Below are positions 10,125-61,699 of a stretch of 64,000 bases of DNA, piece after piece. Position 1 is the stretch's first letter; every line of letters begins with the position of its first letter. A program made the translations under genes and the position numbers. Origin of the DNA: an uncultured Gammaproteobacteria bacterium (GTDB lineage: Bacteria; Patescibacteriota; Patescibacteriia; 2-12-FULL-60-25). Under the pieces are notes generated by a model. That model saw only the letters and a list, made by a program, of their open reading frames with translations. It was not told the origin of the DNA and ran no database searches. Location of the stretch: contig CAZLVV010000002.1 of NCBI GenBank assembly GCA_964563385.1, positions 154 to 64,153 on the forward strand. The letters are read 5' to 3'.

Positions 10125-10158
10125 AAAAAAAACCCCTTCAAGCAAGCGCTTAAAGAGG
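10125..10158 (-). terminator. rho-independent terminator after island gene 2
   Basis: Minus-strand RNA CCUCUUUAAGC-GCUU-GCUUGAAGGGG forms an 11-bp stem including G-U pairs, followed by U8. It lies 65 nt downstream of the stop at 10223. Confidence 0.7.
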
Positions 10159-10222
10159 TTTAAAGCATAAAAGTTACATTAAATATTACATTAAGAAGAT
10201 ATTAGCCTCGCCCATTACATGA

Positions 10223-11407: not shown

Positions 11408-11527
11408 CTTATTCCTTCCTTTCTTTTTTTAAAGTTCATTTTCGCTAAAAGAGCGAAATTTTTTATTTTTAGATCAAATCCGATCCAAAACTTCAATCTT
11501 TTTATTGATTAAAGCCTTGGAAAGAAT

Positions 11528-11551
11528 GGGCGAATTAAACTTAATTCGCCC
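11528..11551 (-). terminator. palindromic hairpin downstream of island gene 3 (possible terminator)
   Basis: GGGCGAATTAA-AC-TTAATTCGCCC lies 22 nt after the stop at 11573. Only a weak U-tract (AUUCUUUCC) follows on the minus strand. Confidence 0.4.
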
Positions 11552-11572
11552 AAAGACTGTAATAAACTAGAA

Positions 11573-33900: not shown

Positions 33901-34339
33901 TATTTAACATGGTGTTAGCTCTAACACTGGCTGTATCTACAAAAGTAGAAATTTAATAAAGCTATTTAACTATTCCTCAATAATCCTCTGGCTTGGATCT
34001 ACAAAAGTAGAAATTTAATAAAGCTATTTAACACCACATCCGCTACGTCCTCGAGAAATCTACAAAAGTAGAAATTTAATAAAGCTATTTAACTATCTTC
34101 CGGCGTTTCCGGCGTATTATCTACAAAAGTAGAAATTTAATAAAGCTATTTAACAAACACAAACGGTAAGAGGCAGTTTAATCTACAAAAGTAGAAATTT
34201 AATAAAGCTATTTAACACGTGGAGGATGTTATTGGTGATCCGATCTACAAAAGTAGAAATTTAATAAAGCTATTTAACGTATCGTTTTTCCAAGTTGGCG
34301 GAAATCTACAAAAGTAGAAATTTAATAAAGCTATTTAAC
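30975..34339 (-). CRISPR. CRISPR array: 55 x 36-nt repeats, 54 spacers (25-27 nt, 50 unique), type V-A repeat
   Basis: Every unit was enumerated by hand. The plus-strand repeat is ATCTACAAAAGTAGAAATTTAATAAAGCTATTTAAC. Its reverse complement is GTTAAATAGCTTTATTAAATTTCTACTTTTGTAGAT, ending in the Cas12a handle. First repeat 30975-31010 is degenerate. Last repeat 34304-34339 adjoins the leader and cas2. Confidence 0.97.
31074..31445. repeat. 2 x 186-bp tandem duplication of a three-spacer block inside the array
   Basis: Units 31074-31259 and 31260-31445 have the same order: spacer A (27 nt), variant repeat, spacer B (25 nt), repeat, spacer C (26 nt), repeat. A third copy of spacer A lies at 31011-31037. 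Confidence 0.95.
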
Positions 34340-34502
34340 TCTTGGATTCGCTTTATTAAGCAAAAAAGATACAAATAATCCAAGATTTAGAATTACGACT
34401 TTTAGCTTAATAAAGCGAATTTTAAAAAATTAAGACCAAGGTTTTGCATTTTTTAAAATAGTTTTACAGAATTTATACTTTTAAATTGTCAAAGTGCTTA
34501 TA
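34340..34502 (-). promoter_or_regulatory. CRISPR leader (AT-rich, between cas2 stop and first repeat)
   Basis: 163 bp. A TTGACA hexamer lies on the minus strand at 34487-34492. A 16-bp perfect inverted repeat ATTCGCTTTATTAAGC (34346-34361) / GCTTAATAAAGCGAAT (34405-34420) is present. No ORF. Confidence 0.6.
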
Positions 34503-34784
34503 TCAACCTATACATATTAAATCCGATTCTTCATGTTTAGCATAACCATAACGCTTTATCTTCTTTTTACAACCTTCACATACCTGAAAAATAACTATAC
34601 TATCCGCTCCTGTAAATTCTTTTTTATATCTCAATTCTACCTCAGTGAGAATATTTTGCAATACCCGCGCGCTATCTTTAATCTCCCAAACAGAGTATTG
34701 AATTCTATTACCCCATTTTTCTAAAAATCTCGCAAATCTCGCGCGTGTTTTATTATTCTCAAAATCATAAGAAACTATAAGCAT
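34503..34784 (-). CDS. cas2: CRISPR-associated endoribonuclease Cas2
   Basis: 93 aa. MLIVSYDF...ARFARFLEKWGNRIQYSVWE is a ferredoxin-like Cas2 pattern. It starts 1 nt downstream of the cas1 stop. Confidence 0.9.
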   Translation of the reverse strand: MLIVSYDFENNKTRARFARFLEKWGNRIQYSVWEIKDSARVLQNILTEVELRYKKEFTGADSIVIFQVCEGCKKKIKRYGYAKHEESDLICIG

Positions 34785-34785
34785 A

Positions 34786-35754
34786 CTATCTTATTACAAA
34801 ATCTCGTAACTCATTCTCATTATTAAGAATATAATAATAATGATCGCGTATATAATTATAAATTTCCATTTTATTTTTTAATATGGCTTCTAAAAAAATT
34901 TTCGAATATTTTACATTTTTTTTATAGGAAAGATAATATTGACCTTTAATAACTCCAAAATCTTTAGAATCAAACCTGCCTAAATTATGCATTTTAATTA
35001 ACTCTTTATCTATAATGCATCTAAAAGGCTCCATCATATCGCACGCTAAAGATTTTCTTTGGAAGAATAATTTATGATATATGCCTTTATAAGTATCAAA
35101 ACCATACAGTCGCAAGATAGAATCTACAAAATTAAACAAATAAGTATACCCCATGTCTAACAAAATATTATTTTCATCAATTTTCCCTCGCGGTATACGA
35201 CGATGCCAATTTATTTGCTTAAAATAAGTTTGAAAAAAATCTTTCGAAACCGCGCCTTCAATACCACGCAATGATGCAAAATCTTTTGCTTTTTCAATTT
35301 GACTTATAACTGATTTTTTATAAATTGTTCTACTTTCTTCATTAATCGTATCAATCTCCGCTCCTCTTAAAAGAGCCAATTGATTGCTTATTTTATTGCT
35401 TACTATATGTTTAGCAATTATTAAAGCCCGTTCTTCATCCATTGTATACTGCTTAGCGCGTAATAAATAATTCCCTTCTGCATAAGAATTGATAGTCGCA
35501 TATATTTCCAAATTTTGCTTTAATAAAAATACCGAAGCGCCAACTTTATTTAATTTTTGTAATATTTTACTTGTAATTGTTACATCACCAACAACAAATA
35601 CGGCTAACAGTTTGTTTACTGGTATTTTATTTATAGTAACGCCTTCACTCTGGATAAAAACATTTTCATTACGCAAACTTAAATTACACTTTGGTAATTC
35701 CGAAGCTTCTAGAAAAAAAATTTGTTTTTCTTTAAAGTCAGGCGCTTGTATCAT
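34786..35754 (-). CDS. cas1: CRISPR-associated endonuclease Cas1
   Basis: 322 aa. Conserved C-terminal core LRGIEG...NILLDMGYTYLF...GIYHKLFFQRKSLACDMMEPFRCIIDK (E/H/D metal site pattern). Confidence 0.92.
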   Translation of the reverse strand: MIQAPDFKEKQIFFLEASELPKCNLSLRNENVFIQSEGVTINKIPVNKLLAVFVVGDVTITSKILQKLNKVGASVFLLKQNLEIYATINSYAEGNYLLRAKQYTMDEERALIIAKHIVSNKISNQLALLRGAEIDTINEESRTIYKKSVISQIEKAKDFASLRGIEGAVSKDFFQTYFKQINWHRRIPRGKIDENNILLDMGYTYLFNFVDSILRLYGFDTYKGIYHKLFFQRKSLACDMMEPFRCIIDKELIKMHNLGRFDSKDFGVIKGQYYLSYKKNVKYSKIFLEAILKNKMEIYNYIRDHYYYILNNENELRDFVIR

Positions 35755-36317
35755 ATTTTTTTACACAATTCACAGTATATACAATTGTGGCATTTAGTTT
35801 TGTTTGTATTATAATTAGTTATAAACGGATCAAATTCGCGTATGGCTTTTAATGTGCAATTAAATTTTTCTTTTATTTCATTATCAACTTTAACTTCAAA
35901 TGTTTTGTTATCAATTAGCGAGTGAATAAACATTGCTTTAATCTCATATCCCATTTCTTCCATGCATAATTTTTGCGCGTATAACTGAAAAATATACCCA
36001 TCATAAACATGATTTACTTTTCTTTTTCTCTCAACTAATCGTTTAGTCTTTTTATCGTAAATATCAATCTTGCCAATTATTCCATATTGCTCAGAAAACA
36101 CTTCCAACCCCTGTAAACAGTCTTTCTCTGATGAGTATTTTTTTGCGTCAATACTTTCATGCGCTATAGCGCCTGCAATTTGAGGTTTTGCCTTATATTC
36201 ATTATGATCAAAGCTTTCATAAACAGCATGAAAATATAATGAATACGGACAAAAAACATAATCATTTATTTTAGATATTTGAATATAATCATACATAAAC
36301 AACCATATCCTATGCAT
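35751..36317 (-). CDS. cas4: CRISPR-associated RecB-like exonuclease Cas4
   Basis: 188 aa. N-terminal Cys (VFCPYSLYF), IGKIDIY...ERKRK (D...ExK), FQLYAQ (QxxxY) and C-terminal CHNCIYCELC Fe-S cysteines. 4-nt overlap with cas1. Confidence 0.9.
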   Translation of the reverse strand: MHRIWLFMYDYIQISKINDYVFCPYSLYFHAVYESFDHNEYKAKPQIAGAIAHESIDAKKYSSEKDCLQGLEVFSEQYGIIGKIDIYDKKTKRLVERKRKVNHVYDGYIFQLYAQKLCMEEMGYEIKAMFIHSLIDNKTFEVKVDNEIKEKFNCTLKAIREFDPFITNYNTNKTKCHNCIYCELCKKI

Positions 36318-36352
36318 GATTTAATCATTTTGTCTAGATGTTAAGGTTAAAA

Positions 36353-39300
36353 TTACCCTACCTTGTTACTTTTTTGCGCAAAATTATCCCATTCTGTATC
36401 GCTTATATTTATATTTAAATCTTTCCAAGATAATTTGTTGCAATTACCTTGTTTATTCGCATGATCCGTAATTTTTTGCAAAATAATAATGCCTTTTCTT
36501 GCAATATTATACGCGCCATTATCATCTCCATTTTTTGGAAGTTCTTTTCCAAATTTTTCAGGATTTCGGCTATCAAAAAATGGCTTCACGGGAGAAAGAA
36601 TAAAATCATCTTTACATTCATGCTTAGCCTGTTCACTATCATCGGTATTACGTATTTGACAGATTAAATTAAAAAAGAAAATTAGATGCTCAAAAAACTT
36701 TTCATTTCCTTTTGTTTCTAGTTTTTCAATCTGAGCTTTAATATCATCATTAATATTTATTCCATACTTTTCAAAAAGCTCCTTCAAATTAGCAGGTTTT
36801 GAGCTTTTGAGATTTATATTCTCTACTTTACCATCGGTTAAATTAAAATAATGAGTATATCCACCAATATTATTATTCAAGCTTTTATTCCATTTAAATC
36901 GCTCTACATTCGAGCACACAGTCCAAACTGTATTCTTTGGATATTCTTTTAGTTCTTGAAACTTTTTAATATCATATTCAAATTCAAACATTCCATTTAC
37001 AAAATCAATACGAGAAAATTTTAAAATATCTCTTTTGGCCTTTTCTGCGTTTGAGTATCTCAAATATAAATTTGGCCTCCATCCGGTTAATGGATCAATC
37101 TTAGAAGTATAGGATGCTTTAGTGTAAAAAATTATTCCTGTTTGCTTTCCCATATCTTTAAAAGAAGTAAAAGGAGCAGAAAGTTGATATGCATTAAACA
37201 AATGTCCTGCTTGTTCTGGATCTTTTTCTTCTTTATTTATTAAATAACTCAATTTATCAATAAGAGCTTTTTCAAGTTGTTGATACACGCTTTTTTCAAT
37301 ACCTCCTCGAATTTGCTTAAAACGCATATTAAGATCTTCAAAAACGATAATAGCATTATATTGGATGGCAAGTTCCGCTAACTTATGCACTACTTGAGAG
37401 ATATAACCTTTTTTGAGGTCTTTAATCCCTTCCACAGCTTGCCAGTCTTTCCGCTCTTGCAAGCGTTTTTCAGCCTTTACTTCTAATTTTTGATGATAAT
37501 CAATTGCCTTTCCTTTTTCATCCTTTCCTACTAAATTCAAACTCCCACTATCAAGAATTTCTCCCTTTTGATTAATGACAGAAAAGTATGCCAAATTTTT
37601 CTCACCCCTATCCACTCCAATAATATTTACATTAGAATTTTTTGCCAAAAATAAATTGAGGTTAGGGTTAAGCTTAAAATATCTAGCTTCATCTTTAGTT
37701 CTATTAAGCGTAATTTTAACATGAAAAAAGATTTTATCATCTTTATAACGTTTATGATTCACAACTTCTTTTCCTTTTTTATCTTTTTTTGTGCCCAATT
37801 TTTGAACATCTGTTTTTGGTCGATAAAAAATTTCCGCCTGCCCATCGAGTTTTATAGGAAAATTAAGAGAGCTATTTTCTGTAGAAAAAAGCGATTCAAA
37901 ATAAAGTGTATGCAAATTCTTTGTCCCTGTAGATCCTTTATTCCAATCTTTATTATTAATTTGAAAGAGATAAAGTTTTTTTATTTTAAAATCACATTTT
38001 GTATTTTTAAAAATTTTATAGATTCCCCTATAAAGATACTCGGCTGATATAGATTCAAAAAAAATTCTATAAAAAGATCCTTTCTTTATTTCAAGGGCTA
38101 ATTCCTTCGCTGTTTCGTATTCATTATCTTCAATTTTTTTTATAAATTTAGAAAATTCAGGGAAAAATTGTACTCGTGTTTCTAAAACTTGTTTCATTCT
38201 TTGCAGAAGCTCTATATCATTCAATTTTTCCCGATCTTCTGAATATTTGTTTCCAAAAAGACCTTTATAAACTGAACCATAAAGAGTTTTTCCATCAATT
38301 TGCTTATAAACCATTTTTTCAAAATCTTCTCCATCATCTTTATATGCTTCCGGAAACTTTAATTTATCGAATAAGGTAGGAAAATCCGTAATTCCCAAAA
38401 AATAATCTCGTTTATTTCTAAAAATAAAACTGCAATATTGCGTATTACCCTCTGGGCTATCAGGCCATCCTTTCGCAAGATTCGCTTTTTCAAAATTTAA
38501 TTTCCATTTTTCCAAATCATATGTTTTTTTTGTTAAATAATTACGTAGTTTGTTATACACCTGAACAATCTCTTCATAAGCATTTTTATAAAATTGCAAA
38601 TATCCATTTATAGGATCCGTATAAAAAACATCAAGCTTATATTCAGTGTTCCATCTTCGCTTTTTCTCTACAGAAAAATATTTTGCCATTTGATAAATAG
38701 TCAAAACAGAATCAGCATAATCTTTAATTGCAACTTTTGCTTTTGAATCTATTTTCAAATCTTCAATCAATCTTTTCAAATCCTCTTGAAAAACAGAATA
38801 TCCTATTTTTTTATTATTAATTTCTCTTTCAAAAAGAGAAGAAAATTCATAATTTAAAATAGCTAAAAATTGCTCCCAAAGCGTTCTTTCTTCAAATTTT
38901 AAAACCTCATAATATCTTTCTTTCCAAAATTTTAGCGCAACTACTGTTTGCGAATCATTTATTTTCATTGCTTTTACGGCTTCTACTTCTATTGCTTCTA
39001 AAGCGTTTTTTATATGACAAAGCGCAAAAAAATCAGGAAACGAATATCCTCCTTCCTTCTGTTTAGCCTTTTCAGCAGAAGATGTAACAATATTAGCCTC
39101 TTTAAGAACCTTATAAAGAGAGTCTTCAAAACCATCTGTTTCACTTGTCCATTTACGCGAAATTGTATTAAAAGCTTCTTTAGAAAAATAAATTTCCTCT
39201 AAATTATAATTTTCTTGATGTTCTACAAAATCAATAAAAAGCTTTCTTAAAATTATTATTCTTTTTTCCGCCTGATGTGAAAATTCTTTCAATACATTAA

Positions 39301-40285
39301 AAAATTCTTCATCATCTTTAATTTCATCAATTAAAAATTTTTCTTTTTCACCAAGGATTTGATTATCCAAAGCAATAAAAAACGGTAATTTTTCATTTTT
39401 TTGTTGTCTATGAAGGTTAATGCATTCATTAAGCCCTTTTTTCTTTTCTCCATTTGGCAAGGTTTCTCCGCCTATAATTTTATTGTAAAAATCAATTCCA
39501 TCCTGAAGCAAACAAGAATTATAAAAATCTAAAGAAAAAATTTCAGAAAGAGCTTTTTCAAAATTATGCTCAACTTCCGTAAAATCCACTTTGTCTCGCA
39601 AACTTTCAAAAATCAAAATATTTGCGCAAAATCTCTTCAAGCTATCATTAATAATACGTGTTGCCAAAGCATAAGCGGTGCCATTATCTTTATAAAAGTT
39701 TTTTCGAGTTTCAAAAAATTTATCAAAATAACCAGTAAAACCTTTCCAACTACTAAAAACAGAAACCAGTTTTCCCGTTGATTCATCTAAAATTTCTACC
39801 GGAATAATTTCTCCATCTTTTTGTATGGGGTCATTCTGATATCTTTCTTTTAAAATAGATTCAAATACAGCCTCCTCAAAAAGAATCTCAATATCCTTAT
39901 TTTTTAAACCCTTATATTTTTTTGCCCAAAGCTCACCCTGTTTATCAAAAAATTTTACCACCTCTTTTCTTAATTTTCGCTCCTCATTTTTAAGTTTTTC
40001 ATCATTTTCCTTTTTATCAATTTTCCATTTTTTAAAAATTTCTAAATACACCTCAAGCTCTGACAATTTAACTCCTTGAAGCGCCTCACGAACAAACTCT
40101 CTATGAAGACGGTCAAAATATGATTTTGTTATTTCGTATTTTCTCTGAATCGCTTTATCTTTTTCAAAAATTTTAGCATCTTCGAGCATTTTTTGTGTAT
40201 TGCCCACCGGTTTCAATTCAAATTTTAAAGTTTTACTCAAAGAATATAGATTCGTAAGGTCGCTAAAAATATTACTTGAAGACAT
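36353..40285 (-). CDS. cas12a: class 2 type V-A effector nuclease Cas12a (Cpf1)
   Basis: 1310 aa. N-terminal LTNLYSLSKTLKFELKPVGNT. RuvC-I IIGVDRGEKNLAY, RuvC-II AIIVFEDLN, Nuc-like ICQIRNTDD...FILSPV, RuvC-III GDDNGAYNIARKG. No HNH insert. Sits directly upstream of cas4-cas1-cas2 and the array. Confidence 0.92.
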   Translation of the reverse strand: MSSSNIFSDLTNLYSLSKTLKFELKPVGNTQKMLEDAKIFEKDKAIQRKYEITKSYFDRLHREFVREALQGVKLSELEVYLEIFKKWKIDKKENDEKLKNEERKLRKEVVKFFDKQGELWAKKYKGLKNKDIEILFEEAVFESILKERYQNDPIQKDGEIIPVEILDESTGKLVSVFSSWKGFTGYFDKFFETRKNFYKDNGTAYALATRIINDSLKRFCANILIFESLRDKVDFTEVEHNFEKALSEIFSLDFYNSCLLQDGIDFYNKIIGGETLPNGEKKKGLNECINLHRQQKNEKLPFFIALDNQILGEKEKFLIDEIKDDEEFFNVLKEFSHQAEKRIIILRKLFIDFVEHQENYNLEEIYFSKEAFNTISRKWTSETDGFEDSLYKVLKEANIVTSSAEKAKQKEGGYSFPDFFALCHIKNALEAIEVEAVKAMKINDSQTVVALKFWKERYYEVLKFEERTLWEQFLAILNYEFSSLFEREINNKKIGYSVFQEDLKRLIEDLKIDSKAKVAIKDYADSVLTIYQMAKYFSVEKKRRWNTEYKLDVFYTDPINGYLQFYKNAYEEIVQVYNKLRNYLTKKTYDLEKWKLNFEKANLAKGWPDSPEGNTQYCSFIFRNKRDYFLGITDFPTLFDKLKFPEAYKDDGEDFEKMVYKQIDGKTLYGSVYKGLFGNKYSEDREKLNDIELLQRMKQVLETRVQFFPEFSKFIKKIEDNEYETAKELALEIKKGSFYRIFFESISAEYLYRGIYKIFKNTKCDFKIKKLYLFQINNKDWNKGSTGTKNLHTLYFESLFSTENSSLNFPIKLDGQAEIFYRPKTDVQKLGTKKDKKGKEVVNHKRYKDDKIFFHVKITLNRTKDEARYFKLNPNLNLFLAKNSNVNIIGVDRGEKNLAYFSVINQKGEILDSGSLNLVGKDEKGKAIDYHQKLEVKAEKRLQERKDWQAVEGIKDLKKGYISQVVHKLAELAIQYNAIIVFEDLNMRFKQIRGGIEKSVYQQLEKALIDKLSYLINKEEKDPEQAGHLFNAYQLSAPFTSFKDMGKQTGIIFYTKASYTSKIDPLTGWRPNLYLRYSNAEKAKRDILKFSRIDFVNGMFEFEYDIKKFQELKEYPKNTVWTVCSNVERFKWNKSLNNNIGGYTHYFNLTDGKVENINLKSSKPANLKELFEKYGININDDIKAQIEKLETKGNEKFFEHLIFFFNLICQIRNTDDSEQAKHECKDDFILSPVKPFFDSRNPEKFGKELPKNGDDNGAYNIARKGIIILQKITDHANKQGNCNKLSWKDLNINISDTEWDNFAQKSNKVG

Positions 40286-49456: not shown

Positions 49457-51949
49457 ATGTCACCCAACGATTTAATCAACCGCTTTACCACCCATCTTAA
49501 AGAAGCTTTGCAAAAAGCTTTGAGTTTCGCTGTATCCAATGGCAGAGCAGTGGTGGAGCCAGGAGATATTATCGTTGGTCTTTTAAATGAAAAAGGGGCT
49601 TTGGGAGGTGAAATATTGAATAAAGCAGGTTGTACTGTAACAGTAGCTTCAGAATTTTTCCGTGGTACTCCGGCTAATAAAAAATCATTAATAGCGCTTG
49701 ATCTTAGCGATCCGGTTAAAAAAATCATCGAAAAATGCGTGGTTATAGCACACTTGCACGGACATAAATTCGTGGGAACAGAGCATCTGGTTGCGGCCTT
49801 GATTGAATCCGAAGACAAAAAAGTTCTGGAGTTTTTTAAACAACAAAAAGTTAATTTAACTACATTAAAAAACCAAATCGAAGCAATTTTAAAATCCGAA
49901 TCCAATTTTCCAGAATTAAATCAAATAAGCAACCAAACTTTAAATGAAGATTTTCTTCCATCCATTTTACCAGAAGATGATTTATTAACTCCAACTTTTC
50001 CGCAACAAACAAATCGTCAATCATCATCTTCAGCGCTAGACTCATTCGCGCGAGACATAACTCATAAAGATATTGTTTTTTCTTTGGATCCGGTGATCGG
50101 TAGAAATACAGAAATTAACCGCATTATCGAAATTCTAATCCGCAGGACTAAATCCAACCCGATTCTACTAGGAGATCCTGGCGTTGGAAAAACAGCAATT
50201 GTCGAAGGTCTTGCCAAAAGAATAGCCGATGGGGATGTGCCGGATGCTTTGTATGGACACAAAATCCTTAGTTTGGATTTAGCTTCCACGGTGGCCGGAA
50301 CAATGTATCGCGGTGAATTCGAAGCTCGACTCAAACAAATTGTTGAAGAAGCAAGCAAAAATCCTCATATCATTTTATTTATTGATGAAATACATAATAT
50401 TGTTGGAGCAGGTTCCACATCCGGATCTTTAGACGCAGCCAACATTTTGAAACCAGCTTTAGCACGAGGCTTCATTCGCTGTATTGGCGCCACTACTTGG
50501 TCCGAATATAAAAAACACATAGAACCAGACTCGGCCTTAGAACGTCGTTTTCAACCCATAGTCATCAATGAACCCGATAAATTTGCAACACTTGAAATGC
50601 TTAAGGGTCTAGAAGAACGTTACGCTAAACATCATAAAGTAATTTATGCGCCACAAACTTTAGTCGCAGCCGTGGATTTTGCTGAACGCTTCTTAACGGA
50701 TCGTCTTTTTCCAGATAAAGCTGTAGATTTACTAGATGAAGCCGCCGCTTCGGTTGCCGCTCGTCGCCAATCCCGTGAATTTCGCGAACGTTTAGCGGTT
50801 TTAGATGCGGCTATTCAAGAAAAAATTCATGCTTCTGAAGAAAGTTTACGCAATCAAGACCTCACGCGCGCCGAAGCGTTAACACGTGAAGCTGAAAAAT
50901 TAATTGCCAATCGCAATCAAATGGAAAATGAAAAAAATCAATCATTGCAAAAAGAACGTCCACGAATCTTGCCCGAAGACGTGGCTCGTGTCGTTGCGCG
51001 CATATCCAACGTGCCCTTAGAAATGATCTTAGCTTCCGAACGTGAACGACTCAATGGCCTAGAAGAACGTTTGCGTCACCAAATTTACGGCCAAGATCAA
51101 GCTATTCAAGCCGTTTCGGATGTTATCCGCCGAGCTCGCCTTGGCCTGCAGGATAATAGACGTCCTAAAGCTTCAATGCTTTTTGTTGGTCCTTCAGGTA
51201 CAGGCAAAACCGAACTCGCTCGCTCCATTGCCCGTGAAATTTTTGCCAACGAAGACGCTTTAATTAAACTTGATATGAGTGAATTCGCAGAGCCACATAC
51301 CATTTCCAAATTAATCGGATCCCCGGCCGGTTATGTTGGCTATCGTGAAAGCGCTAAACTCACAGACGCTATTCGCAAGCGCCCACACGCTGTTGTTTGT
51401 TTTGATGAAATTGAGAAAGCGCACCCAGATGTTCAACACACACTTTTACAAATCTTGGAAGACGGTAAAATAACTGACGCCACTGGGCGCACAATCTCTT
51501 TTGCGCATTCTTACATAATCTTGACTTCCAATGCCGGTTCCGAACATGTGGATAAAAAATCAATCGGCTTTGGCAATGAACGCATTGCCATTTCCGCAAT
51601 TTTAAATGAACAAGTAAAAGAACATTTCAAGCCCGAACTATTAAATCGCCTTGATCGCATAATCACCTTCCAATCTTTAGATATTTCACATTTAAGAAAT
51701 ATTTTAGATTCAGAAATCACTCAAGTTTGCGCTCGTTTACAAAACATGCAAAAAGTAACTTGCGAAATTCCTGAAAGCGTTCGCGAATGGCTAATATCAC
51801 GACCCCTCCCTTCTGAACAAGGCGCCCGAGCCATTCGCCATTTAGTTGAACGTGAAATAACTTCTGTCATCTCTCAACACTTAATCAATCGCCGTAACAA
51901 ACGTCTAATACGTTTCACAACACAAAATGGCAAAATAATGGTAAAATGA
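49457..51949 (+). CDS. clpC: Clp/Hsp100 AAA+ ATPase, ClpC-type
   Basis: 830 aa. Clp_N repeats, two Walker A sites (GDPGVGKT, GPSGTGKT), a short middle domain (about 70 aa) and a KKSIGFG (IGF-type ClpP loop). Confidence 0.88.
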   Translation: MSPNDLINRFTTHLKEALQKALSFAVSNGRAVVEPGDIIVGLLNEKGALGGEILNKAGCTVTVASEFFRGTPANKKSLIALDLSDPVKKIIEKCVVIAHLHGHKFVGTEHLVAALIESEDKKVLEFFKQQKVNLTTLKNQIEAILKSESNFPELNQISNQTLNEDFLPSILPEDDLLTPTFPQQTNRQSSSSALDSFARDITHKDIVFSLDPVIGRNTEINRIIEILIRRTKSNPILLGDPGVGKTAIVEGLAKRIADGDVPDALYGHKILSLDLASTVAGTMYRGEFEARLKQIVEEASKNPHIILFIDEIHNIVGAGSTSGSLDAANILKPALARGFIRCIGATTWSEYKKHIEPDSALERRFQPIVINEPDKFATLEMLKGLEERYAKHHKVIYAPQTLVAAVDFAERFLTDRLFPDKAVDLLDEAAASVAARRQSREFRERLAVLDAAIQEKIHASEESLRNQDLTRAEALTREAEKLIANRNQMENEKNQSLQKERPRILPEDVARVVARISNVPLEMILASERERLNGLEERLRHQIYGQDQAIQAVSDVIRRARLGLQDNRRPKASMLFVGPSGTGKTELARSIAREIFANEDALIKLDMSEFAEPHTISKLIGSPAGYVGYRESAKLTDAIRKRPHAVVCFDEIEKAHPDVQHTLLQILEDGKITDATGRTISFAHSYIILTSNAGSEHVDKKSIGFGNERIAISAILNEQVKEHFKPELLNRLDRIITFQSLDISHLRNILDSEITQVCARLQNMQKVTCEIPESVREWLISRPLPSEQGARAIRHLVEREITSVISQHLINRRNKRLIRFTTQNGKIMVK

Positions 51950-54786: not shown

Positions 54787-55500
54787 ATGCAACTACATTT
54801 AAACGCGCAAAAAACAGCAATATTGATCATCATTTTTGCCATAGTTATTTTTATCGGTTCAGCCGGATATAAATGGTATAAAATTTCAACGAGCACATAC
54901 ATAGCCGGAGCTCCTCCAATTGATCTGGTTAATGAAATACCTCCAAAATCAGTACCTTATGATCAAATTAAACCGCGCGCTTTAACTCCTTACGACGCTT
55001 TCATTATCGGATCAGTCACCTCTTCTTATGGATTGATATTTTACGGAGATTATACGAACCTCGCATCAAATGCCTTGCTAGTTGAGCTTGTTTCTAAATT
55101 ATTGCCTTACGAAGATCTAGTTCGTTTAAATTGGCATTATCTCCCCGAAACAACCAAAGATGGCGACATGGGTTTTGAATCTGCTATAGCTTCTGAATGT
55201 TCACGTTTATTAGAGCAAAATTGGCCCTTGCACGAAGCACTGCTTAAAGAATCCGGCAAAAAACTTAGTCGTTCACGCTTAAAACAAATAATTGAAGAAT
55301 TTAGCGCTGACCCTGAAATGATTCACGTTTGTCAAAATAATTCCGTAATTCGTGAAAGCGTTAAAACAGCGATTCAAATAGCCAAAGGCGATGGCATTGA
55401 CAAAGCCCCTTTTGTTTTTGTGGGCACCGAAGCCATACCCGCATCCGAAGCCAATATTGAAAAAATCATCAATGCTCTTAGAGACTATATTAAAAATTAA
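54787..55500 (+). CDS. membrane-anchored hypothetical protein (possible DsbA-like thioredoxin fold lacking CxxC)
   Basis: 237 aa. N-terminal TM. At the place where DsbA/BdbD proteins carry FxDxxCPxC it reads FYGDYTNLASN. The C-terminal GIDKAPFVFVG resembles the cis-Pro loop. Fold assignment is tentative. Confidence 0.6.
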   Translation: MQLHLNAQKTAILIIIFAIVIFIGSAGYKWYKISTSTYIAGAPPIDLVNEIPPKSVPYDQIKPRALTPYDAFIIGSVTSSYGLIFYGDYTNLASNALLVELVSKLLPYEDLVRLNWHYLPETTKDGDMGFESAIASECSRLLEQNWPLHEALLKESGKKLSRSRLKQIIEEFSADPEMIHVCQNNSVIRESVKTAIQIAKGDGIDKAPFVFVGTEAIPASEANIEKIINALRDYIKN

Positions 55501-57058
55501 TTCAATTTTTGAACAAAAATCTTTAAATGTGTTTTTCACCAAAACGCTGTTATTTATTATTGTATTTTTTTCTTTAAATTTCCCTCTTTTTGCGTATGCG
55601 TCTTGTTGCACTTGTAATCACCCTCAAATAAAAACCGGAACCATTTGTATCAGCCAAGAAAACAATTCTTGCACTAATTTGGGATCCGTAAACGATGAAT
55701 TAAAATCCGCCACATGCAAAACCGAAAACAATAACTCTACTTGTCGCTTGGTGAAAGATGGTGGAGTCTGTGTCAACAATCCTAATACAACCGCTACCGC
55801 ATTCAAACTTAACGACATTCTTCCCAAAGCGCCTGAATCCACAGAACCCCCTCCTTCCTCCGAATCAACTGAATTCAAACCCACTCCATTCAAATTAAAC
55901 ATAGACATACCTGGTGCAAAATTCTCTAATCCTTCTTTACAACAAGGCATGTTATCCATCCCTTATCTTGGTCAATACATTCAAGCATTTTACAAATTAT
56001 TAATCGGCATAAGTTTAATTGCAGCCGCCATAATGATTATTTACGGCGGTTTTCGCTATGTAGTTTCAGCCACAGCTTCTAAAATCCAATCCGGTAAACA
56101 AATTATAATCGATGCTTTGATGGGTTTAGCTATAGTTTTAGGAGCATACGTAATTCTTGCTAATATCAATCCAAATCTTACTCAACTCGAAAGCCTAACC
56201 TTGCCGTTTGTTGAAAAAGTTCCATGGGATGAAATAGTAGGATCTGCCACTGAAAGGCCTAGTGAAGCATTACGATCTATTGGCAACCCTTCTGATAAAC
56301 AAGCAATAGCACAAGACATAGTACGCTATGCTAAAGAATTCCAAATAGACCCCTGCGTCTTATTAGCGATCTGCAATCATGAATCTGGATTCAAATGGCG
56401 ATACGAAGCTGAATTTATAAATAGAAGTCAGTATGATGCTACAGCGATTGGATATTGTGGCACACATGTAAATTTCTTCCTTGATAATGCAGGTTTTAGC
56501 AATAAAGTTGTCAATCTATTACGAAAAAAATTCCCAGAATTTCCTGCTTGGACTAATGGTAAAAGAAAAATGACTAAAGAAGAAAGAAATGAACGTATAG
56601 ATTGGGTAATAGCGCATCCTCAAGTTTCTTCTTATGTAGCAGCTTATGTATATTATGGCGAACTATCAAATACAAATGTAAATAAAAATGAAATACAAAC
56701 CATCGCAAGATATGGAGCGGGAGGAGGTTCAATGAAAAGATGGATCAATAAAACAAACTGCAAAGTTGAACCAAACATACGTATTAAAAATGCTGTTAAT
56801 CAAGATCGTGCATCAGTTTTAGCCAAATCATGCGTTCCATATGGTGTATCCATTCCAGGAAAAACGCCTAATGATTGCGAAAAAGATTCATATATATGCG
56901 CAGAGTTGAAAGCAAAGAAAAATAAAGGATCTACATTGTATGGTCATTGCCCTTCTAATCCAGACCAAGAATGCGTTGGTATGAAAACCGATGAATTTGC
57001 CCAATACGTACTAAATAAATATAATGAAATGCAAGCTCGCTTCCCTTTTTGCAAATAA
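55472..57058 (+). CDS. exported protein: Cys-rich N-region, conserved two-helix pilin-like membrane module, lytic transglycosylase (SLT)-like domain
   Basis: ORF 55391..57058. Likely start is the ATG at 55472 or the GTG at 55529, which would give signal peptide FFTKTLLFIIVFFSLNFPLFAYA. Shared module IPYLGQYIQAFYKLLIGISLIAAAIMIIYGG...ILANINPNL. SLT-like LAICNHESGF...AIGYCG. Confidence 0.75.
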   Translation: MLLETILKINSIFEQKSLNVFFTKTLLFIIVFFSLNFPLFAYASCCTCNHPQIKTGTICISQENNSCTNLGSVNDELKSATCKTENNNSTCRLVKDGGVCVNNPNTTATAFKLNDILPKAPESTEPPPSSESTEFKPTPFKLNIDIPGAKFSNPSLQQGMLSIPYLGQYIQAFYKLLIGISLIAAAIMIIYGGFRYVVSATASKIQSGKQIIIDALMGLAIVLGAYVILANINPNLTQLESLTLPFVEKVPWDEIVGSATERPSEALRSIGNPSDKQAIAQDIVRYAKEFQIDPCVLLAICNHESGFKWRYEAEFINRSQYDATAIGYCGTHVNFFLDNAGFSNKVVNLLRKKFPEFPAWTNGKRKMTKEERNERIDWVIAHPQVSSYVAAYVYYGELSNTNVNKNEIQTIARYGAGGGSMKRWINKTNCKVEPNIRIKNAVNQDRASVLAKSCVPYGVSIPGKTPNDCEKDSYICAELKAKKNKGSTLYGHCPSNPDQECVGMKTDEFAQYVLNKYNEMQARFPFCK

Positions 57059-57103
57059 TATCACAATCAAAATATTAACCTCAGCAAAAACTAACATAAT
57101 ATC

Positions 57104-58870
57104 ATGGATAAATTAAGTATAATTAAATATTTAAAAAATATTACTTATTTATTAAGTTTAATTTTTATTTTAACATTAACAACACCCGTTAAAGCGCAAA
57201 TAACTTTTAATTGTTATATTTGTCAAGTAGAATCAATAGAAAAAAGCGCCAGTTTCTGTATACAAATACCCAAAGGGCAATCTTTAAACAACTCAATTAG
57301 CATTCTTCAACAAAAATTCGAAAATAACATTACTGTAACATGCGACTCTAACACACTCACAAATATTCAATGTTCCAAATTAGGAACATCTCCAAATTCA
57401 ATCTGCCCAAATGATCCTGTTATTATAGATAAATTTAATCCTAAATCATTACCATTAGAAACTAAACAAACAACAAGCAATTCTGTCATTACAAATGAAA
57501 TCAAAAATACAGCTCCGATTCTTAATATATCCATACCTGGTTTAAATTTTTCTGATACTATTAATGAATCCGGTCAATCTCTTTTAGTACCTTATTTAGC
57601 ACAATACATTTCAGCATTGCAGAAATATCTAACAGGGGTTGCTTTAATCTTAGCGGCTATAATGATTATCATTGGAGGAATTAAATACATAATAGCTTCT
57701 ACCGGTGCAAAAATAGCACATTCTAAAGAAATAATCATTGATGCTGTTATGGGTATGGTTATTGTTTTGGGATCATATTTAATCTTAGTTAATATTAATC
57801 CAAACTTAACCTATCTATCATATCTACAAATTACTCAAGTTGAAAAAGCATCTTACAATCTTAATGCACCAATAGTCAAAGCCGAAGTAATAAAAGCCGC
57901 CACTCCTAAATCTCCAACTTTAATGCCTGTAATAAGATACGGAGGCACCACGCCTGTTACAAGTCCAGCAGAGATAAAAAAACAACCGGTTCAAGACACT
58001 CAAGGAAATTACATTGCACAAGGACAATGTCCAAATGGCATGATTATGATAAAAAATAGCCCTGCCTATACCGCCAAAACAACAAAAAATGTAAAGTCTT
58101 TTTGTATGGATAAATTCGAAGCTCCCAATATGCCAGGCGTAAAACCATACATTGGCGTAGCTGATCCTGAAGCAGACTGGTGGTGTAATGAACGAGGAAA
58201 AAGACTTTGTACAATTGACGAATTTCAACGAGCCTGTCTTGGGCCTGAAGGAACGCAAACTGTTATGTTTGGAACTGAATACATTAGAGGACGATGGTAT
58301 TACGAGGGTAAGGGGCCCTCAGCCAAATTAAAAGGAAACAATAACAATGAACCAGCTCCATGTAATTACGACAGTAAAAGTGATGTTTATCAAACAGAAA
58401 AATTAATAAAAGCTTACGAAAGTTTAACAGTTTATTTCACAAAAGAATATAGTGTTCTGAATCCTGATAATCCAAAATTAACTGATCCTCGATACAAGCG
58501 TTTATATGATGCTTGGAAAGACGCTATAGATAAATTTGCTAAACAAGAACCTAGTGGAGAAAGAATCAATTGTCGTTCAGTTGAAGGTGTTTATGATTTG
58601 TTAGCCAATACACAAGAAATTGTTTTAAGTGAATTAGGCGCTTCAAAAAGCATAGAAGAACGTATGGAGATAGCAAAAAAAGGTGCAACCAGTAAAGCAA
58701 AGCCTTATATGTGGGCCGGTTTCTACTGGTCACCTTTGCATCACTTGGGAAAAAACAATTCAAATGTTGGTTCTTTGCCTTCATGTACAGTAACGTCTGG
58801 AAGCGAACATACTTCCAACTATCGTTCACATGAAAATGGCTTTCGTTGCTGTTTAAGCTTAGAAGAATAA
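57104..58870 (+). CDS. exported protein: Cys-rich N-region, the same two-helix module, FGE-sulfatase (SUMF1-like) domain
   Basis: 588 aa. Module VPYLAQYISALQKYLTGVALILAAIMIIIGG...ILVNINPNL. FCMDKFEAPN...ADWWCNERGKRLCTIDEFQRAC...RSHENGFRCC matches the FGE-sulfatase pattern. Confidence 0.75.
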   Translation: MDKLSIIKYLKNITYLLSLIFILTLTTPVKAQITFNCYICQVESIEKSASFCIQIPKGQSLNNSISILQQKFENNITVTCDSNTLTNIQCSKLGTSPNSICPNDPVIIDKFNPKSLPLETKQTTSNSVITNEIKNTAPILNISIPGLNFSDTINESGQSLLVPYLAQYISALQKYLTGVALILAAIMIIIGGIKYIIASTGAKIAHSKEIIIDAVMGMVIVLGSYLILVNINPNLTYLSYLQITQVEKASYNLNAPIVKAEVIKAATPKSPTLMPVIRYGGTTPVTSPAEIKKQPVQDTQGNYIAQGQCPNGMIMIKNSPAYTAKTTKNVKSFCMDKFEAPNMPGVKPYIGVADPEADWWCNERGKRLCTIDEFQRACLGPEGTQTVMFGTEYIRGRWYYEGKGPSAKLKGNNNNEPAPCNYDSKSDVYQTEKLIKAYESLTVYFTKEYSVLNPDNPKLTDPRYKRLYDAWKDAIDKFAKQEPSGERINCRSVEGVYDLLANTQEIVLSELGASKSIEERMEIAKKGATSKAKPYMWAGFYWSPLHHLGKNNSNVGSLPSCTVTSGSEHTSNYRSHENGFRCCLSLEE

Positions 58871-58874
58871 AAAA

Positions 58875-60233
58875 TTAAGGCTTGTATTTCACATCACAAT
58901 TTTTCATAAGACTATGTGGAGGTGTTGGCGGGAAAGCACATTCCGTACAATCAATAGAATAAACTCCAGAATAATTATAGTGCCACATCTCTGAGCACAT
59001 TCTACGCCAACCAGCTTCAGCTAATATCTTTTGTAAAATTTTAGAATTTTCAATACCCATCGAAACCGTTCCATCAACTTGATTTACATTAGTTTTTTTA
59101 TCACAAAGCGGACCTCCAACAGTCAATAAATTAGCAAATTTATCATCTATTTTTAAATATTCTTTTTTCTTTCCTTTTTTAATCTTTAAAGTTCGCAACA
59201 TATAGCTCTTGTCTGACAAACCGCCTAAATTTACATCAATGGCCAAGCCTAAATTATGAGGAGATGCTCCCGGAAAAGTTAAACCACCACTATTCTTATT
59301 ACCAGTCGTCATCCTATTACACCATTCCTTCAAATGAGCTTCAACAGGCCTCGTTGTTACAGGTACATACAAAAAATACCCCTGCGCTTTTGCGATTTCA
59401 CCAGCTTTAATTAAAGCATTTTTTGCTTCCGGTATTAAATAAGCTCCTCCACCTTCTTTAGGAAAATATAAACCATATTGCTTTATTTGTTCTTCCGGAG
59501 TTAGATTTGAAATTTCGTTAAAATTCGCCAAATCACTTAATTTTGGATAAACAGATGTATCATATTCCAACTCTCCAGTAGCACACTTACACGATTCTAC
59601 GGTAGTGCATATCGCTCTCGCTGGTTTATATTTAGGATTAACTACACAGCCTTTATTTCCACCTCTATCCTCTCCTTCTGATAAAACCTGATCTGCTGTA
59701 GATGATTGAAAAGATTGTTGAGAAGAAACTGTAGAGTCACCCAATATATCTTCAATACTACTATCAGGATAAGCTTCACCCCACAATTTCTGTTCTGTTT
59801 TTAACATGGTTAAACCTGAAAAATTAAGTAAATTGGGATTAATGTTAGCAATAATTACATAAGCGCCTAAAAAAATAACCATACCCACTATAGCATCAAT
59901 CATTTTTTGCTTAGCATTTTGAACCTGAATTCCTGTTGAAGACAAAAGATATAAATAGCCACCATAAATCAACATAATTGCAGCAACCAGCACAGCAATA
60001 CCAACTGAATATTTAAAAAAAGCATAAATATACGTTGCTAAAAAAGGAATAGTTATATAATCACCATTAATAATAATAGGGCTTTCCGTAAAATCTAAAC
60101 CCTGAATCGAAACGTTTAACTCCGGTGCATAATAAACATCATCTTCTGCCGCATTTACAGAAAAGCTTATAAAACATAAAAAAACCAAAATCAAAATTTG
60201 AAAATAAAATATAAAACGAAGTTTAATAAACAT
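58875..60233 (-). CDS. exported protein: the same two-helix module, M15 (VanY/D-Ala-D-Ala carboxypeptidase-type) zinc peptidase domain
   Basis: 452 aa. Module IPFLATYIYAFFKYSVGIAVLVAAIMLIYGG...IIANINPNL. M15 motifs TTRPVEAH, SPHNLGLAIDV (SxHxxGxAxD), EMWHYNY. Confidence 0.78.
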   Translation of the reverse strand: MFIKLRFIFYFQILILVFLCFISFSVNAAEDDVYYAPELNVSIQGLDFTESPIIINGDYITIPFLATYIYAFFKYSVGIAVLVAAIMLIYGGYLYLLSSTGIQVQNAKQKMIDAIVGMVIFLGAYVIIANINPNLLNFSGLTMLKTEQKLWGEAYPDSSIEDILGDSTVSSQQSFQSSTADQVLSEGEDRGGNKGCVVNPKYKPARAICTTVESCKCATGELEYDTSVYPKLSDLANFNEISNLTPEEQIKQYGLYFPKEGGGAYLIPEAKNALIKAGEIAKAQGYFLYVPVTTRPVEAHLKEWCNRMTTGNKNSGGLTFPGASPHNLGLAIDVNLGGLSDKSYMLRTLKIKKGKKKEYLKIDDKFANLLTVGGPLCDKKTNVNQVDGTVSMGIENSKILQKILAEAGWRRMCSEMWHYNYSGVYSIDCTECAFPPTPPHSLMKNCDVKYKP

Positions 60234-60337: not shown

Positions 60338-61699
60338 ATGCCCAAATCCACACCCATTCATACCTGTTCCAAATGCGACGCTCAATTTCCTAAATGGAGT
60401 GGACGTTGCGAATCTTGTGGTTCTTGGGGCACTATCAGTAAAGAAACCGTTTTGCCAAGCTTAGAATCTAATTCCAGCTTCATGATTAAAGCATCTCCTG
60501 CTAAATTGACCTCTTTTCAATCCTTAATGCAAAATGATGCTAACGTAAAACGTGGAACAATTGTTGGCTTGGAAGCGATTGATACGGTTCTTGGCAATAA
60601 TTTGGTTCCCGGATCTGTAACTTTAATTGCCGGAGAACCGGGTATGGGTAAATCCACATTATTAACCGAACTTGCTCTAAAAATGGCTCAAGATGGCAAA
60701 AAAATCATCTATGTTACCGGAGAAGAATCTCCTTCTCAAATCAATCTTCGAATCAAACGCTTATCCAATTCCACACCAAATAACTTATATTTCTTAGAAG
60801 ATACTCAAACAGAAGTCATCTCGGCAACAATAGAGGTCGAAAAACCGGATCTTGTTATAATCGATTCAATCCAATCTATAAAAACAGCCGAAGTAACTGG
60901 TGAAGCCGGTTCGATTAATCAAGTTAAAACTTCAACCGCAATTTTAACTCAAACCGCCAAGAAAACTTCAGTGCCTATCATTTTAGTTGGTCAAGTTACC
61001 AAGGATGGCGATATTGCCGGTCCGCGAGTTTTAGAACATATTGTGGACACGGTCTTAAATCTCGAAGGAGATCGTTTACATCGTTATAGAATTTTGCGAG
61101 TTATCAAACATCGCTTCGGTTCCACGGATGAGATTGTTTTGTTAGATATGACAGAAACCGGTTTAAGAATTGTCCAAGATCCTTCAGCCACCATAATTGA
61201 AAATCGTCCAACATCAGCTCCTGGTTCAGCCATTGGTTGCGTTCTAGAGGGACGTCGTCCTCTTTTGGTGGAAATCCAAGCTCTAATCTCTCCTGCAGGT
61301 TACAGTACGCCAACCCGCAAAGCCACGGGGTTGGATGGCACGCGCCTCAACATGCTTTTAGCCGTTCTCTCACGACACGCTGGCCTTAAAGTCTACGACA
61401 AAGATGTTTATGCCAATGTGGCCGGAGGGCTCCCAATTCGTGATCCGGCTTCGGATTTAGCATTAGCTACTGCAATTTCAAGCGCAGTACACAACAAACC
61501 ATTAGAAGCTAAAACCGCTTATTTCGGTGAAATCGGCCTCACTGGCGAGCTTCGACCTGTTGCTCTTCCTGAACTTCGCATCAAAGAGCTTTCTCGCATG
61601 GGATTCACAACTATCATTTGCCCAGTTTCTAAAAATCTAAAACCAATAACCAACATTAACATTATTCAAGTTAAAACAGTCAGCGAAGCCTTGAGGTAA
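60338..61699 (+). CDS. radA: DNA repair protein RadA/Sms
   Basis: 453 aa. Zn finger CSKCDAQFPKWSGRCESCGSWG, Walker A GEPGMGKST, KHRFG (KNRFG-type) motif and a Lon-like C-terminal domain. Confidence 0.92.
   Translation: MPKSTPIHTCSKCDAQFPKWSGRCESCGSWGTISKETVLPSLESNSSFMIKASPAKLTSFQSLMQNDANVKRGTIVGLEAIDTVLGNNLVPGSVTLIAGEPGMGKSTLLTELALKMAQDGKKIIYVTGEESPSQINLRIKRLSNSTPNNLYFLEDTQTEVISATIEVEKPDLVIIDSIQSIKTAEVTGEAGSINQVKTSTAILTQTAKKTSVPIILVGQVTKDGDIAGPRVLEHIVDTVLNLEGDRLHRYRILRVIKHRFGSTDEIVLLDMTETGLRIVQDPSATIIENRPTSAPGSAIGCVLEGRRPLLVEIQALISPAGYSTPTRKATGLDGTRLNMLLAVLSRHAGLKVYDKDVYANVAGGLPIRDPASDLALATAISSAVHNKPLEAKTAYFGEIGLTGELRPVALPELRIKELSRMGFTTIICPVSKNLKPITNINIIQVKTVSEALR

Follow-up and report, generated by a model that had tools for sequence, protein, structure and literature searches.

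What does a bacterium do with a pilin-like hairpin that is joined, in three adjacent genes, to three different C-terminal domains? The question is raised by the proteins that we denote A, B, and C (Table 1), which are encoded in a stretch of 64,000 nucleotides (hereafter, the window) of contig CAZLVV010000002.1 from genome assembly GCA_964563385.1, a lineage that, judging from its genes, appears to belong to the Patescibacteria (Candidate Phyla Radiation (CPR)). It bears on a wider problem, namely, how ultrasmall episymbionts attach to and tap their hosts, which is largely unknown and for which A, B, and C provide concrete molecules to consider. We find it probable, from the sequences, that the three proteins consist of a pilin-derived hairpin that displays further domains on the cell surface, wall-cutting ones in A and C and what is probably a wall-binding one in B.

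The first-pass annotation described three adjacent paralogs with a shared block, and this description holds in full: the open reading frames (ORFs) are in place, the third one on the minus strand, and the quoted peptides are found verbatim. The shared module of about 115 aa shows pairwise identity of 46–55%; in BLASTP, A matches C with 47% identity over 116 aa (E 7e-30) and B matches C with 47% identity over 113 aa (E 5e-29), and the match between A and B (E 2e-24) spans 260 aa because these two proteins also have a Cys-rich N-terminal domain in common. Downstream of the module, pairwise BLASTP detects no significant similarity among the three, so the C-terminal domains are indeed different, and the motifs that had been highlighted in them (NHESGF, RLCTIDEFQRAC...GFRCC, SPHNLGLAIDV, and EMWHYNY) all fall in conserved columns of the family alignments. 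In each protein, a conserved N(I/V)NPxL junction and a linker connect the module to this Cys-rich C-terminal domain. A hidden Markov model (HMM) of the module, run against all ORFs of at least 50 aa, identifies exactly three copies in the window. Sequences identical to A, B, and C are present in public assemblies, in 14 contigs, where the gene call for A has the same start, at 55472, and the same length of 528 aa (P0165, 14 contigs).

The module is a predicted hairpin of the Pfam family PF18895 (‘T4SS_pilin’, after the type IV secretion system (T4SS)), with a subfamily-specific N-terminal extension, LNxxIPGLxF. Several lines of evidence lead to this assignment. The PF18895 model matches all three proteins below its gathering threshold of 26.6 bits (A, 15.9; B, 20.8; C, 23.0); relatives with the same long architecture exceed the threshold, with 35.5 and 29.1 bits; and hhalign aligns the three modules with small PF18895 proteins over 80 columns with a probability of 99.25% and an E-value of 5.5e-20. 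The comparison set consisted of 13 small proteins with precomputed PF18895 matches that were found by a word-indexed homolog search; these proteins (87–197 aa) share the core ...IMLIYGGFxYxxSxGxxxKVxxAKxxIxxAIIGL..., and some of them also contain INPxL. Among 90 close relatives, 52 match PF18895 (E≤0.001), as do 11 of the 13 A-type orthologs (E≤0.01). PF18895 is a VirB2-like pilin family abundant in Patescibacteria, in agreement with the initial suggestion of a pilin-type family common in CPR genomes, and its members form arrays of 2–11 genes with about 25% identity, often near virB4 (PMC12102498; PMC10633639; PMC12857230). Hydropathy analysis and motif inspection, along with a structural model of B, reveal in A, B, and C alike a signal peptide followed by two hydrophobic helices that are joined by a short, Lys-containing basic loop. 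The three proteins do not have the small stand-alone form (about 90–200 aa) encoded near virB4 that is typical of PF18895 pilins; they are 452–588 aa long, with large flanking domains.

The predicted membrane topology follows from these features. All three signal peptides are of the AxA type, with cleavage sites after AYA (before S), VKA (before Q), and VNA (before A) in A, B, and C, respectively. Cysteines are even in number and confined to the flanking domains (8+10 in A, 6+10 in B, and 10 in C), with none in the hairpin. The positive-inside rule and the even numbers of cysteines both make it likely that the domains on either side of the hairpin are extracytoplasmic. The AlphaFold model of B (14-sequence alignment; pLDDT 71.9) consists of a beta-rich N-terminal domain, short strands, the hairpin (helices 164–197 and 201–231), and a separate C-terminal domain; the model of C, built from a single sequence, is unusable (pLDDT 38.8). 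In F-pili, the loop between the helices is cytoplasmic or luminal, and both pilin termini are outside (PMC5018250). By analogy, A, B, and C would have the topology of a VirB2/TraA pilin before membrane extraction: once the protein has been inserted by Sec and its signal peptide has been cleaved, the hairpin would sit in the cytoplasmic membrane, with its short basic loop facing the cytoplasm and the flanking domains facing outward and disulfide-bonded.

Such a topology, together with the homology to PF18895 pilins, invites a bolder explanation, namely, that A, B, and C are true minor or tip pilins, the hairpin being extracted by a T4SS encoded elsewhere and built into a PF18895 pilus that displays the enzymes along its length or at its end and drills the host wall. 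PF18895 arrays are linked to a T4SS, and both the arrays and the T4SS are essential in Southlakia epibionticum, the sole species tested, which belongs to the Saccharibacteria (PMC10633639; PMC12102498; PMC12857230), and with both F-pilin termini outside, a C-terminal fusion is topologically allowed (PMC5018250). Most of the Patescibacteria with VirB2 homologs lack VirB1 (PMC12102498), a gap that a fused hydrolase could fill; in that study, extra wall-related domains are reported only for VirB1 homologs. However, the window and the syntenic loci contain neither virB4 nor virB6 nor a gene for a small pilin, a Foldseek search with the full-length B model listed no pilin among its 50 best PDB matches, and a domain of 270–340 aa on each subunit is hard to fit to a pilus rise of about 13 Å per five-subunit layer, as we infer from the F-pilus structure (PMC5018250), unless such subunits are incorporated sparsely or carry extended linkers. 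We consider this explanation unlikely.

Among the C-terminal domains, that of C is the clearest. It is a predicted LAS/M15 peptidoglycan peptidase with a complete Zn-binding and catalytic motif, as had been proposed (M15, VanY-type): the residues listed in Table 1 are invariant in the 16 sequences of the C family, and R295, H326, D333, E415, and H418 align to R71, H116, D123, E181, and H184 of VanX. The profile of this family retrieves from the PDB 4ox3 (LdcB/YodJ; E 4.4e-12), 1r44 (VanX; 4.6e-10), and 4jid (5e-9), along with VanY/VanXY-type enzymes, and the NCBIfam model of D-Ala-D-Ala dipeptidase matches C with an E-value of 3.4e-7.

For the C-terminal domain of A, we arrive with moderate confidence at a lysozyme/lytic-transglycosylase-like domain that apparently retains the catalytic Glu, which agrees with the SLT assignment made at first. 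The family motif DPC..LA.C.HE(S/T)G, in which Glu304 is nearly invariant across the 13-sequence alignment, reads HESGF in the window, and this Glu lies in an E-S/T motif at the end of the first helix, as in SLT/GH23 enzymes. The SLT model PF01464 matches 4 of the 13 A-type orthologs (E≤0.01; best, 2e-5), and profile comparison connects the A family with a second allele family (..TESGG..) around the catalytic helix (probability 89.7%, E 1.8e-6). Searches of the PDB with profiles returned only non-significant hits in which the same Glu motif is aligned, GH73 (5wqw; E 0.21) for the A family and goose lysozyme (E 0.59) for the A-type protein of a related contig, L013. The motifs of GH23 family 1 are GLMQ and AYNxG; relatives of A carry G(I/A/V)CQ(I/V) and (S/G)Y(G/N)AG, and A itself has GYCG and RYGAGGG.

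Protein B is a different case. Its C-terminal domain matches the FGE-sulfatase family PF03781 with 23.7 bits (E 4.5e-5), barely over the threshold of 23.3, and this family is also matched by 8 of 90 relatives (best E 2.6e-8). The profile of the B family retrieves SUMF2 (1y4j; E 5.9e-4) and formylglycine-generating enzymes (FGEs; E about 0.04) from the PDB; with the B model as a query, the 13 best Foldseek matches in the PDB are all FGEs (E 3.8e-3 to 6e-2; best probability 0.96), with weak but consistent TM-scores (target) of 0.33–0.43. However, CxxxxC is absent at the FGE active-site position, where only one invariant cysteine, C561, is found between residues 537 and 579, in a loop modeled with low confidence. 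In human FGE, the copper-binding catalytic pair is Cys336/Cys341, about 25–30 residues before GFRC. B is predicted to adopt the FGE fold but, with the cysteine pair missing, is probably not an FGE, and it is more likely to be a binding or structural module than such an enzyme. Thus, of the initial FGE-sulfatase/SUMF1-like assignment, the fold stands and the enzyme probably does not. The proposal that each paralog is fused to a cell-wall-active enzyme fits A and C but not B, an FGE-sulfatase-like protein and not a known cell-wall enzyme; we found no link between the FGE fold and cell-wall cleavage.

An indication of how these proteins evolve comes from the two most closely related contigs, L013 and L014. 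The proteins encoded around the trio are 82–88% identical to their counterparts there (ClpC, 86–87; propeller, 85; thioredoxin-like protein, 81–82; RadA, 83; RecG, 87–88). In contrast, A is 53% identical to the L014 protein and alignable with the L013 protein only over the first 308 residues; B shows 76% and 36% identity to the L014 and L013 proteins, respectively; and C is 74% identical to the L014 protein and matches the L013 one only in the module. In sliding windows along A, identity is 77–97% through the module (to residue 240) and drops just past NINPNL to 20–45% (L014) or 10–20% (L013); at the DNA level, the drop is from about 75–85% to about 40–65%, at approximately nt 56200–56230. The C-terminus of the L014 A-type protein is 65% identical to that in a more distant genome (ClpC identity 75%) compared to 37% identity to that in the window. 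This collapse of identity immediately after NINPNL, while the flanks stay at 82–88%, indicates that the C-terminal cassette of A has apparently been replaced at a conserved junction. Within a genome, the modules do not evolve in concert: orthologous modules are 82% identical, compared to 46–55% for the paralogous ones. The islands contain 2–4 copies, with content that differs between genomes, the order SLT/middle gene/M15 is kept in several of them, and there are at least 12 C-terminal types among the window and eight loci.

Other cargo was observed at the same island positions in related contigs (L013, 11500..12807, minus strand; L010, 11618..13483; L012, 10001..11899). One cargo type displays a papain/NlpC-P60-like motif pair (..NCGNVAQC.. 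and GDWVYVY..GMHSMIFLGW) and another one displays a GH73-like motif (..TEG.GKC.. and YYNFGGVGC). Profile searches of the PDB yielded no match for the family in the C position of L013 and a non-significant one, to the GH73 enzyme AtlE (E 0.92), for the middle gene of L010/L012.

A sharp boundary between constant and variable parts, like that in A, is also seen in polymorphic toxins, and A, B, and C could be effectors of this kind, with the constant N-terminal part and hairpin as a trafficking module and the C-terminal enzyme set free, for example by a cut at the conserved Asn-Pro site, so that it kills or lyses a competitor or a host. The position of the boundary right after NINPNL, the sharing of cassettes with more distant genomes, and the cargo types (lysozyme-like, M15, papain-like motif, and GH73-like) are in line with this possibility; such cargo resembles the repertoires of antibacterial effectors. 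However, the intergenic gaps of 45 bp (A–B), 4 bp (B–C), and about 100 bp (C–radA) leave no room for an immunity gene, in L013 and L014 as well as here; several genomes keep the cargo types in one order; no sign of cleavage was seen; and domains known from toxin delivery, such as Rhs, CdiA, and LXG, were not detected in a Pfam scan. Altogether, a role as effectors appears quite unlikely.

The architecture is by no means confined to this locus. At E≤1e-3, a filter-only HMMER scan of the module against 1.84 billion cluster representatives identified 22,722 module-bearing representative clusters, of which 5,057 pass E≤1e-10. In 143 of the best 150, at least 150 aa follow the module; nearly all of the best 150 are 350–900 aa long, the module being located around residue 117 and followed by a median of 287 aa. 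Tandem modules, 3–4 per chain, occur in eight of the best 150 (P0017, P0019, P0021, P0034, P0041, P0043, P0051, and P0142; ‘poly-pilins’). Pfam analysis of the C-termini of 90 of the best 150 detected FGE-sulfatase (8), M15 (8), VanY (6), SLT (5), Peptidase_C39_2 (4), and glucosaminidase (1) domains, and most of the C-termini match nothing; fusion of the same module to other domains in related genomes, a search for which had been suggested, is thus borne out, with SLT, M15/VanY, FGE-like, C39-like, and glucosaminidase types. Some module proteins of 410–546 aa (two relatives) bear the NCBI label ‘pilin’. No description of pilin-module/enzyme fusions or of the clpC–radA island was found in the searchable literature, the coverage of which is incomplete, so that this is absence of evidence only. 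The claim that no such system has been described holds to that extent, with the proviso that thousands of these proteins are already in the databases, some labeled ‘pilin’.

Table 1. Coordinates of the module proteins, their parts, and other genes in the window
Feature	Coordinates	Strand	Description
Protein A, 528 aa	55472..57058	+	Signal peptide (about residues 1–44), Cys-rich N-terminal domain (8 Cys, residues 45–100), P/S/T linker, pilin-like module, SLT/lysozyme-like C-terminal domain
Protein B, 588 aa	57104..58870	+	Signal peptide, Cys-rich N-terminal domain (6 Cys), linker, module, FGE-sulfatase-like C-terminal domain
Protein C, 452 aa	58875..60233	-	Signal peptide, module directly after it, no Cys-rich N-terminal domain, linker, predicted M15/LAS metallopeptidase domain
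Module of A, residues 136–250	55877..56221	+	LNIDIPGAKF motif, transmembrane helix 1, short basic loop SATASKIQSGKQ, transmembrane helix 2, NINPNL
Module of B, residues 133–248	57500..57847	+	AlphaFold model: strands 129–162, then helical hairpin (164–197 and 201–231)
Module of C, residues 35–148	59790..60131	-	
C-terminal domain of A, SLT/lysozyme-like	56255..57055	+	DPCVLLAICNHESGF with near-invariant Glu304, GYCG, RYGAGGG; 10 Cys
C-terminal domain of B, FGE-sulfatase/C-type-lectin-like fold	58001..58867	+	FCMDKFEAPN, EADWWCNERGKRLCTIDEFQRACLG, ENGFRCC; 10 Cys
C-terminal domain of C, predicted M15/LAS peptidase	58878..59648	-	Arg295, Ser324-x-His326, Asp333, Glu415-x-x-His418; 10 Cys
clpC	49457..51949		
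Island gene X, 488 aa	52030..53496	+	Four 21-aa N-terminal repeats, 3 C-terminal transmembrane-like segments; same position in relatives
TolB/PD40-like beta-propeller, membrane-anchored, 408 aa	53557..54783	+	
Thioredoxin/DsbA-like protein, membrane-anchored, 237 aa	54787..55500	+	Last 29 nt shared with the start of A
radA	60338..61699		
Cas2	34503..34784	-	
Cas1	34786..35754	-	
Cas4	35751..36317	-	
Cas12a	36353..40285	-	

The trio seems likely to be the variable cargo of a chromosomal island located between clpC and radA. The order clpC–(X)–propeller–thioredoxin-like–2–4 module proteins–radA–recG is found in all 13 related contigs examined (L001–L008 and L010–L014), of which eight are loci from GTDB species representatives, namely, metagenome-assembled genomes of Candidatus Uhrbacteria, Parcubacteria, and Patescibacteria along with three records labeled Gammaproteobacteria (probably mislabeled), and five are metagenome contigs. 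Among genomes that carry a name, a Candidatus Uhrbacteria bin is the closest, its RadA and RecG being about 78.5% identical. In Bacillus subtilis, clpC and radA are direct neighbors, which suggests that the island was inserted into an ancestral clpC–radA unit.

The closely packed genes for X, the propeller, and the thioredoxin-like protein precede A on its own strand; a scan for promoters and terminators (51.8–60.45 kb) yielded nothing above chance, so the operon structure is deduced from gene spacing alone. Protein X, for which no family match was found, contains four perfect repeats of 21 aa (TPPDTSEIDENWDTPATS) and a transmembrane-like segment that is rich in cysteines (CADCALCGASC); in relatives, its C-terminal part is 46–64% identical and its N-terminus is variable, with a total length of 410–800 aa. 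The propeller gene precedes the module genes in 11 of the 13 contigs, the other two being cut short upstream. The thioredoxin-like protein, which is always encoded directly ahead of the module genes, looks like a degenerate thioredoxin fold: in six orthologs, CxxC is absent, with FYGDYTN..SN in its place, and two conserved cysteines, 138 and 182, are kept. A DsbA-type oxidoreductase is a weakened candidate for this neighbor without CxxC.

The genomic context bears on two further explanations. The window is chromosomal, with housekeeping genes (tRNA synthetases, DnaE, RseP-like, MurI, GlmM, ClpC, RadA, and RecG) and a Cas12a CRISPR locus, and with murI and glmM only a few kb upstream, the organism apparently makes peptidoglycan. 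Under these circumstances, A, B, and C might be housekeeping autolysins, the hairpin being a plain membrane anchor and the enzymes remodeling the thin wall of the cell itself as it grows, divides, or inserts pili or secretion machines, with no filament and no attack on a host. A lytic transglycosylase and a carboxypeptidase make up a normal autolysin set, the island is a vertically conserved part of the chromosome with housekeeping genes on both sides, and no T4SS genes are nearby. However, enzymes that act on the cell's own wall should evolve much as the neighboring genes do, yet the C-termini have been replaced while the flanks remain 82–88% identical; nor do the copy number of 2–4 and the differing content fit such a role, and a plain anchor would not need a strongly conserved PF18895-type sequence with LNxxIPGLxF and NINPNL. 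The fast turnover of the C-terminal domains favors a variable external target, the wall of a host or a neighbor, over pure housekeeping, and we regard the autolysin explanation as somewhat unlikely. A prophage lysis cassette, in which a two-helix holin is fused to endolysin domains, would be a further option, a transmembrane hairpin with SLT, M15, or amidase-type domains being reminiscent of holin/endolysin pairs. This option is effectively refuted, and we consider it next to impossible: none of the six island proteins matches PHROGs (E≤0.01), the flanking genes are housekeeping ones and not phage genes, the position is conserved across a deep clade, and the module proteins carry signal peptides as well as Cys-rich domains that would be extracellular.

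Several observations weigh against the explanation that we favor, a pilin-derived hairpin presenting wall-active domains. The proteins in the window fall under the Pfam threshold for PF18895; single sequences of the enzymatic domains do so as well, with 16.0 bits for A (SLT PF01464; threshold 21.3; E 0.009; first 24 profile positions only) and 16.4 bits, compared to 25, for C (VanY). The resemblance to TrbC/VirB2 pilins noted in the first-pass annotation is real insofar as the module is homologous to PF18895, a VirB2-like family; it does not extend to the TrbC/VirB2 family proper, as the PF04956 HMM gives no significant match (B, E 0.44, 11.2 bits vs 27.9; best relative, E 0.0081–0.019), and no solved conjugative pilin was recovered by sequence or by a fold search with full-length B. 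The PF18895 profile finds no relative among PDB sequences, the best matches being generic transmembrane hairpins, and generic hairpins, but no conjugative pilin, are also all that appears among the 50 best PDB matches of the full-length B model in Foldseek. A demonstrated PF18895 pilus was not found in the literature searched, and B has no recognizable catalytic site. No gene for VirB4, VirD4, VirB6, or any other T4SS component is present in the 64-kb window or in the 20-kb syntenic loci; with CxxC absent, a role of the thioredoxin-like neighbor in disulfide formation is unsupported; and the housekeeping neighborhood near murI/glmM is equally compatible with self-directed wall remodeling. Finally, we infer the activity, topology, and localization of A, B, and C from their sequences. 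A role in breaching host walls would likewise be a deduction, and a role on the cell's own wall is compatible with the same findings.

Apart from the island, the window contains a complete type V-A CRISPR-Cas locus (30983..40285), with an array (30983..34339) of about 54 units of 61 bp, the repeat of which has a Cas12a-type ...AATTTCTACTTTTGTAGAT end on the minus strand. The GC content is 0.49 at 10001..12000 and about 0.35 elsewhere; this segment coincides with an ORF with repeated MopE-like putative metal-binding motifs (10223..11407; E 6e-29) and a 441-aa ORF without a family. Three large ORFs, 20500..22938 (812 aa), 25149..26390 (413 aa), and 8627..9901 (424 aa), match no Pfam family at E≤1e-3 or 1e-4.

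If the favored explanation is correct, the module would tether wall-cutting and wall-binding domains at the cell surface, combining a VirB1-type function and a VirB2-type module in one chain, and some copies might be built into a PF18895 filament. Going further, one could propose, tentatively and with more doubt than conviction, that a deep clade of Patescibacteria keeps a clpC–radA island that recombines a T4SS-pilin-derived carrier with wall-degrading or wall-binding cassettes, a polymorphic ‘VirB1-on-VirB2’ toolkit, on the surface or on filaments, that would be adapted in each strain to the walls of its hosts. Such a toolkit would explain why most VirB2-bearing Patescibacteria lack a separate VirB1. 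Should the enzymes act on host walls, their alleles could mark host range, and should the module be built into filaments, this would be a new mode of enzyme display on a pilus of the conjugative type; if the proteins are no more than anchored autolysins, the database label ‘pilin’ would still be corrected for them. The role of the saccharibacterial T4SS has been called completely unknown in a review (PMC11665869).

Among known systems, the closest are the PF18895/VirB2-like arrays of Patescibacteria (Wang et al. 2023, PMC10633639; Quinonero-Coronel et al. 2025, PMC12102498), which share with the trio a homologous hairpin core, signal peptides, tandem divergent paralogs, and the phylum. In descriptions of known members, the pilins are small and stand alone, often beside virB4, whereas here the hairpin is part of proteins of 450–590 aa, with enzyme or binding domains of 270–340 aa behind it and, in A and B, a Cys-rich domain ahead of it, and the trio lies in a clpC–radA island without nearby T4SS genes. 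The TrbC/VirB2/TraA pilins (PF04956; F-pilus, PMC5018250) are similar in the signal peptide, hydrophobic hairpin, short basic loop, and predicted topology with both termini outside, and differ in the absence of a significant sequence match or a recovered structural match to the module and in the large domains fused here. Polymerization, lipid binding, and cyclization are traits of those pilins; A, B, and C are known here as sequences only.

The C-terminal domains, too, have well-characterized counterparts. The catalytic motifs of M15/LAS enzymes (VanX, VanY, LdcB, and phage L-Ala-D-Glu peptidases) are kept in C and the catalytic Glu motif of SLT/GH23 enzymes in A, both of which are highly divergent and rich in extra cysteines; the structural motifs of FGE-sulfatase/C-type-lectin-like domains are kept in B, likewise divergent and extra-Cys-rich, without the FGE cysteine pair. 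With polymorphic toxins (CdiA-CT after VENN, Rhs, and LXG), the trio shares a constant N-terminal part, a swappable C-terminal enzymatic cassette, and a short conserved junction motif; unlike those toxins, it has no adjacent immunity genes and no toxin-delivery domain, and it carries wall-active or wall-binding domains in place of nucleases or pore-forming toxins. Variable surface proteins display the same pattern of C-terminal cassette replacement.

The VirB1-type hydrolases of monoderm T4SSs (PrgK of pCF10, TraG of pIP501, and CwlT of ICEBs1; cited in PMC12102498) resemble A, B, and C in being membrane-anchored, with extracytoplasmic wall-opening domains. They are encoded inside conjugation clusters, unlike A, B, and C, and join SLT with CHAP, LytM, or NlpC/P60 in one chain, whereas here each paralog carries one variable domain. 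VirB1-type hydrolases are held in the membrane by a simple N-terminal transmembrane segment or a lipoprotein anchor and are not known to use a pilin-family hairpin. PF18895 pilins and membrane-anchored VirB1-type hydrolases are known; the fusion of a pilin-like hairpin with an enzyme, an architecture that is real and widespread, appears to be new as far as the searched literature goes.

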